The position numbers were made by a program, and so were the translations under genes. From Escherichia phage C1, in sequence record NC_054651.1: DNA of 46,667 bases; one strand, written 5' to 3'. The notes below the pieces were generated by a model. The model ran no database searches. It saw nothing but the letters and a program-made list of their open reading frames with translations, and was not told where the DNA came from. Below, in pieces: positions 3,226-41,024 of this stretch (within the stretch, counting starts at the first letter, position 1; every line of letters starts with the position of its first letter).

Positions 3226-7026
<3,801 letters not shown>

Positions 7027-12023: not shown

Positions 12024-12740
12024 TCAGGACACAGTGCAAGCCGTGCTGATGATAATTTCAGGGTCAGTGGACGAGTCAGTCACCGTGACGGTATATACAC
12101 CAGCGGTTGGGCTTGCCAGTGATGCGCCGGACTCACTGCCGACAACCACACCATCTTTGCGCCACACGTAGGTGTAAGGAGAGACGCCACCTTCAACAGC
12201 AACGGTTAACGGGCTGCCAGCCGTTCCAGTTGATTGCAGGTCGGTAGTGAATGCCAGAGGTTCAAGGCTTTCTACGGTAACGCTGTCAGAATCGTAAACC
12301 TTAAACTCAAGGCTGCCAGTAACGATGTCGTTTGTGCCACCTTCGTAGCTGATGCTGGTAATGTTGCAGTACGCGGTCACGATAGTCGCACCGGTCACCT
12401 CGCGCACCCACAAGGAAGGCTGGCGACGCGCTTTCAGTTCAGTGGTGTAAATCTCAACCAGACGATGGAAACCAAACTCATCGCTCGGGTCATTTTTGCG
12501 TATCTCAACCTCTGCGCTGATGGTCATATCAGAGCTGGTAACGAGAGTGGAAACAAAACCGCCAGTGGTGTCAGCTTCAGACGTGGTAGTCTGCGGCGAG
12601 TAGTCCACGCCTTTACTGGTGGTTGAGCCTAAATATTTCCAGTCTTCTGCTGCCGGAACTGCGTCACCGCATCCCTCAGCAAGGAACAGTCGAGTCATGC
12701 GACCGACCAGAACGCCTTTATCATTTGCACAAATAGCCAT
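12024..12740 (-). CDS. major tail protein (lambda V-like, C-terminal Ig-like domain)
   Basis: 238 aa; C-terminal 80 aa has Big_2-like Ig pattern (TVAVEGGVSPYTYVWRKDG...GVYTVTVTD); strong SD (GGAGA) before ATG. Confidence 0.65.
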   Translation of the reverse strand: MAICANDKGVLVGRMTRLFLAEGCGDAVPAAEDWKYLGSTTSKGVDYSPQTTTSEADTTGGFVSTLVTSSDMTISAEVEIRKNDPSDEFGFHRLVEIYTTELKARRQPSLWVREVTGATIVTAYCNITSISYEGGTNDIVTGSLEFKVYDSDSVTVESLEPLAFTTDLQSTGTAGSPLTVAVEGGVSPYTYVWRKDGVVVGSESGASLASPTAGVYTVTVTDSSTDPEIIISTACTVS

Positions 12741-12773
12741 TTCGATCTCCGAATTGTGTTAGCTGCTAACGTG

Positions 12774-12821
12774 GTGATTATATCACAGGTGTTGACAGTG
12801 ATTATTTTGTGGTGTAGATTG
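12774..12821. promoter_or_regulatory. divergent promoter module B: minus-strand extended -10 (TGTGATATAAT) for major tail gene and plus-strand TTGACA-17-TAGATT
   Basis: Plus strand TGATTATATCACAGGTGTTGACA-N17-TAGATT; near-copy of module A. Confidence 0.5.
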
Positions 12822-13262
12822 TATTTCAGATAGTTTTCGTGAGCGACTTTGCGGACTTTTTAGAAACTGACCACAAAGATAAATGCAAACGATGATGTTG
12901 TTCTGATGGCGGCGTAATAGCCTGTAAGTCAGCAAGGTCTTCCGATTCCTTGTAAACAAATTCGGCGCAGTGGCCCGCTGTGATTAATAATGGGCACACA
13001 ACAGGTAAGAGCATTGAGTCGATAATCGTGAAGAGTAGGCGCGCTTGGTTAGCCAGTGATCTTTCCGTTGTGGTAATGCCATCTTGATTATTTGGATAGG
13101 TTTGCATCCATTGTTATGCCAGTTTCAGTTAATCGCGAAACGCCACAACACTTAACATTCAGCATTAATTGAAAACAATTTTCCGTAATTATGTATAGGG
13201 GTATGCAGGGATTACGGAGCTGGATGTTAAGAAAGCACGCTGGCAATGCTTAAACCAGTAAT

Positions 13263-13291
13263 AAAGCCGCTTCATGCGGCTTTATTTATTT
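13263..13291. terminator. rho-independent terminator
   Basis: AAAGCCGC-ttcat-GCGGCTTT hairpin followed by TTTATTTATTT on plus strand; also immediately 3' of minus-strand gene 13286..13660. Confidence 0.6.
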
Positions 13292-13660
13292 CACAACCCG
13301 CAAAAGCAACTCATGTACGGGCCGCTTCTCTTCCGTCAGCATCGGCCTACCGAGCGGAGCCTGCAACTGGATGTAGTTAACGCACGAATCAATCGGATGC
13401 GTCTTGATGTATTCGATAATTTCATTGGCTTTAGCATCAACATCAGCAACGTTGTACTGGCCTTGCTTGCCAACAACATACAGAGAGAAATAGAAGTCAC
13501 CGCCGAGTCCATTCATCACCTGCGTGCCGCCGTTGGATTGCAGGACAATAAATTGCTCACTGCCATCTCCAGTGTCATTCCAGAACTGCAATTGCGAAGT
13601 CCAGCCATCATACAATCCAGCATCCTGAAGATATGTATCAACCAGTTCAAGCATGTTCAC
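13286..13660 (-). CDS. head-tail joining protein (tail terminator/neck position)
   Basis: 124 aa; last of four compact, overlapping small genes between capsid and major tail genes. Confidence 0.4.
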   Translation of the reverse strand: MNMLELVDTYLQDAGLYDGWTSQLQFWNDTGDGSEQFIVLQSNGGTQVMNGLGGDFYFSLYVVGKQGQYNVADVDAKANEIIEYIKTHPIDSCVNYIQLQAPLGRPMLTEEKRPVHELLLRVVK

Positions 13661-15936: not shown

Positions 15937-16746
15937 ATGAAAACACTAAGCAAAATCTATTCAGACAAAGAAACGCGCAACGGTATCGCTGTCAATAAAA
16001 CCTATCTCGTGCCAGTTGAGCAAATCTATCTTGAGCCTGGATACAACATCCGCGAAGCCGATGAACAGCATGTGGAATATTTCGCGCAGTGCTGGGAATC
16101 AGGTCAGCCACTGCCAGCATTAACAGTTATTCCTGACGAGAAGGGAATCCGCATTCTTGATGGTCAACATCGCTACCTCGGCGCATTGCGTGCCATTGAG
16201 CGTGGCGCACCAATCGTTCGTATTGAGTGTAAGGATTTCACTGGCGATGAGGCGGACAAAATTGCCTTCATGGTGTCATCCAGTCAGGGGAAGCAACTTG
16301 ACCCGTTTGAGCGCGCAAAGGCTTACACACGACTGAAGGGTTTTGGCTGGACGAATGAAGAAATAGCCAAGAAGGTAGGTCGTTCAGTATCTGACGTGCA
16401 GATGCATCTGTCACTGGGTGATGTGCCTGCGGAAGTAAAAGCGCGAATCAGTGCCGGGCAAATCAGCTATGCAAATGCCGTAGCAGTAACTCGCGAGCAT
16501 GGCGATGATGCGGTAAAAGTTATCGACGAGGCAGTCGAAGAAGCTAAAGCACAAGGCAAAGACAAGGTCACAGCCAAAGTGCTGAAGTCGAAAAAGATTA
16601 AGCCAATAGACCGCCTGATTGAGTTATTGAAGCCAGCAGACCATGTGATTCTTCCTGCTGGTCATGTAGTGGCAGAGGATGAGGAGTTTATCCAGATTCC
16701 TGTTGCTGATATTCACGAGGTTATGGCAATTCTGGAGAAGATGTGA
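15937..16746 (+). CDS. ParB-like nuclease domain protein
   Basis: 269 aa; ParB/Srx N-terminal domain pattern including ILDGQHRYLGALRA; stop overlaps downstream start. Confidence 0.7.
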   Translation: MKTLSKIYSDKETRNGIAVNKTYLVPVEQIYLEPGYNIREADEQHVEYFAQCWESGQPLPALTVIPDEKGIRILDGQHRYLGALRAIERGAPIVRIECKDFTGDEADKIAFMVSSSQGKQLDPFERAKAYTRLKGFGWTNEEIAKKVGRSVSDVQMHLSLGDVPAEVKARISAGQISYANAVAVTREHGDDAVKVIDEAVEEAKAQGKDKVTAKVLKSKKIKPIDRLIELLKPADHVILPAGHVVAEDEEFIQIPVADIHEVMAILEKM

Positions 16747-17626
16747 TGATTATAAATGAAGACGTGAAATTAATTCATGGCGATTGCCTGGAAGTCATGA
16801 AGTCTATTCCTTACAGTAGCGTTGATTTGATTTTGTGCGATTTGCCGTATGGGACGACACGCAACAAGTGGGATAGCGTTATAGAACTGCAGTCGATGTG
16901 GGCCGAGTACAAGCGCATTTCCCGTGGCGCTATCGTGCTCACAGCGCAGGCGCCATTCGACAAGATTCTTGGAGCATCAAATATCGGCATGTTTCGATAT
17001 GAGTGGATCTGGCAAAAAACGAAAGCAACAGGTCACTTGAACGCAAAGATTCAGCCAATGAAAAACCATGAAAACGTCCTTGTTTTTACAAGTCACTACC
17101 AGTGTACAACCCACAGGGACTGGTAAGAAAAGCAGTTCCAACCATAAGAAAGGGTGGAAACAACGGTACGAACTACGGCAAATCAGACAAGGACGCGATT
17201 CAGGAATTTGAGAACTACCCGCGCTCAATCATTGCGATACCAAGCGAAGGCAGAACCATTCACCCAACCCAGAAGCCAGTCGCGCTGATGGAGTACCTTG
17301 TCCGCACCTACACCAACGAAGGCGACGTGGTTATGGATAACTGCATGGGTAGTGGCACGACCGGAGTCGCCTGCGTGAACACTGGTCGTCGTTTCATCGG
17401 AATAGAAAAAGATGATGAGTATTTTGAAATAGCAAAAAAAAAGGATTTTAGGATGAACGCCGAACAATTCATCGAAAAACAACTCCGCGCCAAGCTGCCT
17501 GACATCGACCAGATGGCAGTTGATGCGGCGATTCAGTATTACAAGCGCAATCAGAGCGCAAAGAAGGGTGGCATTTTTGAAGAATGCCTGAAGGTTGCAA
17601 GGCAACACATGATTAAGGTGAAGTGA
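16743..17626 (+). pseudogene. N6-adenine DNA methyltransferase (Dam-like, beta class), split by a frameshift near 17072..17126
   Basis: ORF 16743..17126 carries LILCDLPYG (motif IV-like) and ends ...[19 protein letters not shown]; overlapping ORF in another frame (17102..17626) carries HPTQKP and [12 protein letters not shown] (motif I, AdoMet binding). Confidence 0.7.
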
Positions 17627-18162
17627 TGAAACTAAAAATAAGCAAACTATTACTTGAATCAGCATTAATCTTTCAGGCTCGCAACGATGTGCGTTACTAC
17701 CTGAATGGAATCTGCTTTATGACTAATGGTCGCATTGCGTCAACTGACGGTCATCGCGCATTCATTGGTGGAAGCCATGACAATAAGCTGACAGAAAATG
17801 TGATCATCAAGATTGGCAAATCTCCAACAAAACGCTATGAGTACGCCATTATTGATACCAAGTCGAAAATTGCGACGTATCATGATGAAGCTGGCGCGAT
17901 GGTTGGTGCTGGTATCTGCGAAGAGATTGATGGCCGATTTCCTGATATTGATCGCGTAATACCAAATGAAACGAAAGCAGCAGAGGAAATCGGCTTTAAT
18001 GCTGGTTATCTCGTGGATATCGAGAAAGTGGCGAAGCTGTTTAATCCTAAATTCTGTGGCGTTAAGTTTGAATTGAATGGGAATACAAATGCCGCCGCTT
18101 GCTGCCTTAATGCGCCATCTGGCGAGACTGCGAAGATTGTTGTTATGCCTATGCGACTATAG
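17623..18162 (+). CDS. truncated DnaN-like sliding-clamp protein (beta-clamp homolog fragment)
   Basis: 179 aa; blocks [37 protein letters not shown] and C-terminal VVMPMRL match remembered E. coli DnaN blocks; about half the length of DnaN. Confidence 0.7.
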
Positions 18163-32762: not shown

Positions 32763-32958
32763 GATTAATCCACCATGCGGCAATGGCTGAAATAATCCAC
32801 AATCCGATAACAAGCCTGAAAACCTGCCAGTTTAGAATGTCATCAATACTTGGAGCTTCCCATCTAATCAACCAGATAAACGGGAAAGCAATCGCTAGCG
32901 CAATGGTGTACTTAATACCAATAAACAGAAAATCTCTTACAAAATCTCTCATAATCAC
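32749..32958 (-). CDS. small two-TM membrane protein
   Basis: 69 aa, two hydrophobic helices. Confidence 0.4.
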   Translation of the reverse strand: MIMRDFVRDFLFIGIKYTIALAIAFPFIWLIRWEAPSIDDILNWQVFRLVIGLWIISAIAAWWINHVQK

Positions 32959-40718: not shown

Positions 40719-41024
40719 ATGGCTAACCTGCAACTTGCCGTCAAAGGTGAATACTTCGATGCCATGATTCGCGGAGAGAAAACGGAAGAGTATCGCCTTT
40801 TTAATGACTACTGGAAGAAGCGCCTTATTAACTTTAAAGATAGCGGACAGATTGGAAGGAAGTACGAAAGGTTAATTATCACAAAAGGATATCCAAAGAA
40901 GGACGATAAATCCAGGCGTATTGATATCCCATACGATGGATGGACGGTTAAGACCATCACCCACCCACACTTCGGTCCTGACCCGGTGGAAGTGTTCGCA
41001 ATAAAAGTTAACCTCAAAGCATAA
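40719..41024 (+). CDS. ASCH-like domain protein
   Basis: 101 aa; N-terminal LAVKGEYFDAMIRGEKTEEYR resembles ASCH signature. Confidence 0.45.
   Translation: MANLQLAVKGEYFDAMIRGEKTEEYRLFNDYWKKRLINFKDSGQIGRKYERLIITKGYPKKDDKSRRIDIPYDGWTVKTITHPHFGPDPVEVFAIKVNLKA

Follow-up and report, generated by a model that had tools for sequence, protein, structure and literature searches.

The methylase gene that follows a ParB-like gene in Escherichia phage S192/C1 is, with a probability of about 85%, a genuine and recent pseudogene, namely an accessory beta-class methylase truncated by the shortening of a run of six T to five and fused at its 3' end to the downstream gene through an A run. The pseudogene is almost certainly real and represents an ordinary dead gene rather than a sequencing error or a case of programmed recoding. 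The position and nature of both lesions are established, both are present in independent data sets, and relatives carry intact alleles. In the proposed course of events, replication slippage would have taken one T from the T6 run (GTT TTT TAC to GTT TTT AC, at 17083-17087); ribosomes entering from the start coupled to the ParB-like gene would read correctly up to Phe114 and then append 12 unrelated residues before reaching the stop at 17124-17126, and the product would be a 126-aa fragment without the AdoMet-binding half. An extra base at 17434-17442 would have erased the methylase stop and fused the untranslated C-terminal remnant to a conserved 57-aa gene, whose protein probably continues to be translated from the gene's own ATG at 17453.

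The window, that is, the whole stretch of DNA analyzed (46,667 bases), is 100% identical to Escherichia phage S192 (ON239132.1), a record of the genus Deseoctovirus labeled "partial genome" and originating from piglet intestinal mucosa. With respect to this record the window is reverse-complemented and rotated, the record ending at about window position 32937/32938. Phage C1 (MH717097, NC_054651.1), which has been called a core phage of the pig gut and serves in phage cocktails (PMC11048100), comes from the same laboratory, has an equal length (46,667 bp) and encodes identical methylase-fragment proteins. S192 is probably the same phage as C1, and the two records may not be independent of each other since they share both laboratory and length.

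The locus comprises the following features:

15937..16746, plus strand: ParB-like (HTH_ParB/KorB) gene, taken from the ORF list, with matches to Pfam PF17762 and PF08535 and to phrog_1033
16746..17126, plus strand: N-terminal methylase fragment in frame 0, consisting of residues 1-114 with the DLPY motif IV, 12 out-of-frame residues and TAA
17072..17126, plus strand: stretch in which both frames are open according to the translations, and where a -1 shift would be needed to join the halves
17083..17087, plus strand: T5 run, site of the one-base deletion; ancestral state T6 (GTT TTT TAC = V-F-Y) from intact homologues
17087..17442, plus strand: C-terminal methylase remnant in frame 2, with HPTQKP and GSGTT, ending in EIAKK; PF01555 is recorded on this ORF
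17434..17442, plus strand: A9 run, one base longer than in intact alleles, from the homopolymer census and the 3' ends of relatives
17453..17626, plus strand: conserved 57-aa gene, phrog_4439 (E = 4e-22), a separate gene in relatives
17626..18162, plus strand: 178-aa gene from the ORF list, phrog_3007 by PHROG match, which ends the variable slot

The TGA of the ParB-like gene overlaps the methylase ATG (16746) by one base, and the frame-0 ORF can be drawn from either 16743 or 16746, in both cases to 17126. The C-terminal remnant is cut off from any credible start codon. The 178-aa gene at the end of the slot (17626-18162) has been named variously "DNA polymerase", "DNA polymerase III beta subunit" and "RusA-like Holliday junction resolvase"; its best PHROG is phrog_3007, a weaker match points to a processivity-factor family, and a Pfam search with this gene gave no match.

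A preliminary description of this DNA had reported an N-terminal methylase half with the DLPY motif ending at 17126 and a C-terminal half with HPTQKP and GSGTT in another frame, and both the frameshift and its place are borne out by the ORF list and the translations. The second frame, shifted by -1 against the first, follows a TGA at 17069-17071 and stays open from 17072 onward; the overlap of the two frames, given there as about 50 nt, is exactly 17072..17126 (55 nt), so that the coordinates agree. The statement that no canonical slippery heptamer is present also holds, the frame-0 codons being CTT GTT TTT ACA with no X_XXZ_ZZN in phase. Among 5.8 billion proteins, thousands of single-ORF homologues were retrieved, the best of them 235-250 aa long with 76-86% identity. 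Both pieces align collinearly with single-ORF homologues of 235-245 aa (76-90% identity), and the split is thus not a chance juxtaposition.

Judged from the homologous DNA, the break is a deletion of a single T within a T6 run (GTT TTT TAC), because one T added to the run at 17083-17087 yields a protein that is identical to several homologues across the junction, and because the intact homologues P0009 and P0003 carry T6 in their DNA (GTTTTTTAC). At this site P0009 reads GTTTTTTACAAGTCACTACCAGTGTACAACCCACAGGGACTGGTA, S192 has the same sequence minus one T, and the extra T aside the two are identical across the next 44 nt. F114 and Y115 are invariant in an alignment of 14 relatives, all of which are single-frame across the site, and 138 fetched homologues (225-275 aa) are likewise single full-length chains. 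The PF01555 family has both halves of the enzyme in one reading frame, while here the frame changes at 17083-17087 and runs to the stop at 17124-17126. Among the intact alleles, the closest (P0122, P0123, and P0125) encode 236 aa and are 88-90% identical to the repaired protein, with the N-terminus MIINEDV and the end KKRILG. Alignment to intact homologues, which the preliminary description had proposed in order to place the indel, assigns the lesion to the one T missing at 17083-17087; the second lesion, in the A9 run, had escaped that description. Near-identical intact copies are absent from the E. coli genomes and the phage collection searched, the best other DNA match in the latter being about 70% identical over most of the gene. 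A scan for the T-run pattern found only the P0009-type T6 allele in IMG/VR, and the same scan of JGI metagenomes gave no match.

The joined protein matches the complete Pfam profile PF01555 (N6_N4_Mtase; 101.2 bits, with the cut-off at 26.7, across profile positions 1-221 of 221) as well as phrog_67 "DNA methyltransferase" (E = 1.7e-78). PF01555 is its sole Pfam hit at E <= 1e-3, with no match to PF02086 (Dam), and its motifs occur in the order IV then I, with DLPY at residues 32-35 (invariant in 14 sequences) and MGSGTT at residues 201-206. Because of the lack of a PF02086 match and this motif order, the enzyme is assigned by sequence to the beta-class N6/N4 methylases (PF01555, CcrM/DpnA-type) and not to the Dam family. 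The earlier designation "Dam-like" is wrong at the family level, and the DpnI/MboI (GATC) assay proposed along with it is therefore not justified. Dam methylates N6 of adenine; this family (PF02086, alpha class, GATC) shares with the S192-type enzyme the AdoMet dependence and a (D/N)PPY-type catalytic motif, but its motif order is the opposite, motif I being N-terminal to DPPY. The best matches among solved structures are CcrM (PDB 6PBD; E = 1.7e-21) and DpnA (5HFJ/5HEK; E = 4e-21), beta-class N6-adenine enzymes of PF01555 that likewise have an N-terminal motif IV (DPPY, here DLPY) and a C-terminal HPTQKP...GSGTT (motif I). Only the conserved motif regions align with these two enzymes and the target-recognition part does not, so that the specificity (GANTC or otherwise) is not inferable from them. 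The S192 methylase is in addition devoid of the C-terminal domain of CcrM, and the NCBIfam CcrM and PRK11524 models match the repaired protein far below their cut-offs.

The second lesion lies in the A9 run at 17434-17442, which is the longest homopolymer in the window according to the homopolymer census. With one base fewer the 3' end would read GCA AAA AAA AGG ATT TTA GGA TGA (IAKKRILG*), its TGA overlapping the ATG at 17453. This reading matches the AGG ATT TTA TGA 3' ends of P0009 and S19cd at the DNA level, and exactly the C-termini of P0122, P0123, and P0125 (KKRILG), the A-run states of P0122-P0124 being deduced from protein tails only. The extra base removes the methylase stop, and the remnant runs in frame into the 57-aa gene (MNAEQ...). 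The junction occurs in three states. The first, KKGF*, is found in L112, where the methylase is intact; the second, KKRILG*, in L111, L113, P0122, P0123, and P0125, the methylase being full-length in all of these except L113, which shows the C-terminal part only (contig end). The third, fused state is restricted to S192/C1 and L020, both of which also carry an upstream methylase knock-out. The length of the A run varies between related phages (states 7, 8, and 9), at a position after the catalytic domain.

The 57-aa gene is called separately in swi2, Sa179lw, DS8, VLCpiS13f and many Logan contigs. The 90% cluster of its protein holds 220 members, and among the 14 listed all are 57 aa except the 112-aa chimera of C1. 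The ATG at 17453 has AGGA seven bases upstream and is most likely the start of the gene.

Two observations count against a pseudogene. First, there is no decay beyond the two indels, the repaired protein showing 0 deviations at the 86 columns with a conservation of 95% or more in the 138 homologues. Such an undecayed sequence is what a very recent lesion would leave, given that no more than one base in about 4 kb separates the known copies; continued selection would be compatible with it as well. Second, each lesion sits in a homopolymer, on which slippage could, in principle, regenerate the product.

Very little probability attaches to the view that the pair of lesions is anything other than simple decay, either because a trace of methylase is still made or because selection favored upstream knock-outs that suppress the effect of the A-run change. 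According to the former possibility, which is itself very unlikely, a few ribosomes would slip -1 on U_UU.U, with tRNA-Phe shifting off UUU at 17085-17087 onto UUU at 17084-17086 and producing the exact F-Y junction, and RNA polymerase would slip on A9 and produce the normal short tail, leaving a trace of useful methylase. The tetramer U_UU.U is indeed in phase, a slip on the remaining T run would reproduce the canonical sequence with the wild-type junction F-Y, and the coding sequence is undecayed. Moreover, bacterial transcription slips efficiently on runs of 9 A/T, and HSV thymidine kinase is a known case in which frameshifting compensates for an indel at a low level (PMC5009743), a "savior indel" in a G7 run where, as here, two frames can be joined by a -1 shift. 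The restored junction, however, carries no weight as evidence, because any homopolymer deletion has the same property. In E. coli, Z_ZZ.N tetramers without a stimulator shift at about 0.15% versus a background of 0.11% (PMC4066793), and the RNA fold of 17088-17170 is unremarkable (-18.7 kcal/mol, z = -1.49, 16/200 shuffles as stable). The V-F-Y codons vary freely in 37 intact IMG/VR homologue loci, where the T run has a length of 2, 3, 4, or 6, so the run is not conserved as a signal. The genes of close relatives are intact and another relative carries a plain nonsense codon. As for the suppressor variant, a +1 fusion would occlude the start of the 57-aa gene, and the upstream stops within the methylase of both fused lineages (S192/C1 and L020) may have been selected for that reason.

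Programmed -1 frameshifting of the kind found in dnaX (A_AAA_AAG) and IS3/IS911 resembles the S192 arrangement in that overlapping frames are joinable by -1 and a Z_ZZ.N tetramer (U_UU.U) is in phase. In contrast to programmed and savior frameshifting, the S192 break has no in-phase heptamer (the frame-0 U_GU.U_UU.U is not X_XX.Z_ZZ.N), no stimulator, and no conservation of site or layout, and its expected efficiency is that of the background. A search of the sequence upstream of the shift site for an SD-like stimulator found none; an in-phase A_AAA_AAG does occur within the 3' A run, where its relevance is limited to the sequence past the T5 break. Only near-identical copies of a single phage were seen to carry the split allele, and all copies of this haplotype are T5 + A9, without tract-length switching that would point to phase variation. 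With no heptamer, no notable structure, no site conservation and intact single-frame alleles in close relatives, programmed recoding appears to be without support.

A sequencing or assembly artefact, in which the phage would truly be T6 (and A8) and the deposited record would miscount homopolymers, is highly improbable. In its favor, both lesions lie in homopolymers, A9 being the longest run of the window, and the S192 record is a "partial genome" of the same length as C1 from the same group, so that it may have been assembled against C1. Nevertheless, the Logan assemblies, which were made directly and independently from public SRA runs and were compared here at the assembly level, show T5 and A9 in SRR13872441 (100% identity to the window over 4632 bp) and in SRR22354640 (1 mismatch in 3928 bp, 99.97%). 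Assembly error is unlikely because the T5 and A9 states are shared with these two assemblies, and they appear in the 2018 C1 record too. The +1 state of the A run is also present in L020, a MEGAHIT metagenome contig of a different phage. When every Sa179lw and DS8 ORF of 70 aa or more was compared with the window by tblastn, covering 80% of it, no further coding frameshift was detected, so that homopolymer errors are not a general feature of the record; pervasive error of this type was rejected, the only other frame switch, near 12856, being non-coding. A blastn census of indels against relatives was too noisy at about 88% identity. Eight variant readings were looked up in 15 billion proteins, where only the fused 112-aa piece was present and the repaired variants were absent. 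The preliminary description had listed inactivating mutation, assembly indel and recoding without choosing among them; these data favor the first and argue against the other two.

A two-piece methylase, with N- and C-terminal fragments translated separately and assembling into an active enzyme, is scarcely credible: although the ORFs overlap by 25 nt from a GTG at 17102 and both halves are intact in sequence, this GTG is without a Shine-Dalgarno sequence and gene callers disagree on the start, the pieces are devoid of the invariant Y115 and P119 and burdened with a 12-residue junk tail, and all 138 homologues (225-275 aa) are single chains.

The pseudogene occupies a slot that is variable among related phages, between the ParB-like gene and the conserved 57-aa gene. 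In phages whose ParB protein is identical, this position is taken by unrelated small ORFs, and Sa179lw, DS8, swi2 and contigs L101-L106 have no methylase in it. Klebsiella phage VLCpiS13f (gene S13f_00024) shows the same order of ParB-like, methylase and 57-aa genes with overlapping stops and starts, and its methylase is intact. P0122, P0123, P0125, and L111 belong to the same family and share with S192 the N-terminus MIINEDV and the tail IAKKRILG*, and the intact single-frame methylases of L111 and L112 have their ends at the same junction, ahead of the MNAEQ start that follows. These intact alleles, which belong to related siphophages and, for L111 and L112, come from metagenome contigs, are uninterrupted ORFs, whereas S192 is one T short (T5, not T6) and has a 3' A run longer by one base.

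Contig L020 (ENA ERZ27230487 k141_11579, 3629-4516) carries a different, S19cd-like methylase allele in the same slot and in a single frame, with an in-frame TAA at the codon of the invariant Q103 and a 3' end fused as in S192. Its locus is nearly identical to S192 over the initial 66 nt and the final 250 nt or so, a pattern that suggests allele exchange by recombination inside the methylase gene. In the Felixounavirus members SEP1 (L011, MW311372.1 70483-71185), SP2 and SP4, a homologous PF01555 gene is split where a homopolymer differs by one base, the annotation showing two CDSs, and their sister phage S19cd has the gene intact. These phages carry A7 where the single-frame reading needs A6 (AAA AAA CAA CCA = K-K-Q-P); their break, at NAKKQP, is located about 12 codons upstream of the S192 break and is an insertion, not a deletion. 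A recoding site shared with SEP1, SP2, and SP4 is ruled out as their break lies in a different homopolymer, and the events are therefore independent. PHROGs also holds "half-methylase" families (phrog_12862 and phrog_18293). Given the L020 nonsense codon, the SEP1/SP2/SP4 breaks, these families and the variation of the slot, loss of this accessory gene by homopolymer slips is recurrent and tolerated.

Taken as a pseudogene, the locus probably gives rise to no active enzyme, the lesions are likely to be recent, and the loss would be tolerated because the gene is dispensable. It is predicted that S192/C1 DNA is not self-methylated by this enzyme, which bears on sensitivity to host restriction and on host range. 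The locus constitutes a small and clean case of accessory-gene turnover in phages, with the gene intact, frameshifted, interrupted by a nonsense codon or absent at one position, and the current understanding of recoding and methylation is unchanged.

The main value of the finding concerns annotation. In GenBank the region of S192 is annotated as "DNA methylase" URP83734.1 (126 aa) and "hypothetical protein gp10" URP83733.1 (174 aa), the latter being a chimeric CDS (17102..17626) of the methylase C-terminal remnant and the conserved 57-aa gene. The C1 protein YP_010054298.1 is the exact 126-aa fragment, junk tail included, which Logan assemblies encode in identical form, and the 112-aa "methyltransferase" of C1 (YP_010054299.1) is identical to the fused S192 reading; the start of the C-terminal remnant differs between gene callers (GTG 17102 versus ATG 17288). 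URP83734.1/URP83733.1 of S192 and YP_010054298.1/YP_010054299.1 of C1 should be corrected to pieces of one pseudogene, and the real 57-aa gene, starting at 17453, is hidden in S192 by the 174-aa chimera "gp10".

Two other regions of the window deserve mention. At about 40719-40828, a segment of 35-110 nt is 92-100% identical to many lambdoid and Stx-converting phages, near their EaA genes. The many database matches of at least 99% to Stx-converting phages are due to this short segment (a piece of about 110 nt or less) and were set aside as irrelevant. On the minus strand, positions 12700-13300, upstream of the major tail gene, comprise about 600 nt of non-coding sequence that is rich in indels among S192, Sa179lw and DS8, the corresponding region of DS8 being roughly 300 nt longer. 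Near 12856, a difference of one base looks like a frameshift when ORFs are compared, and the region 12700-13300 contains a strong sigma-70-like promoter, TGTCAACACCTGTGATATAATCACC.
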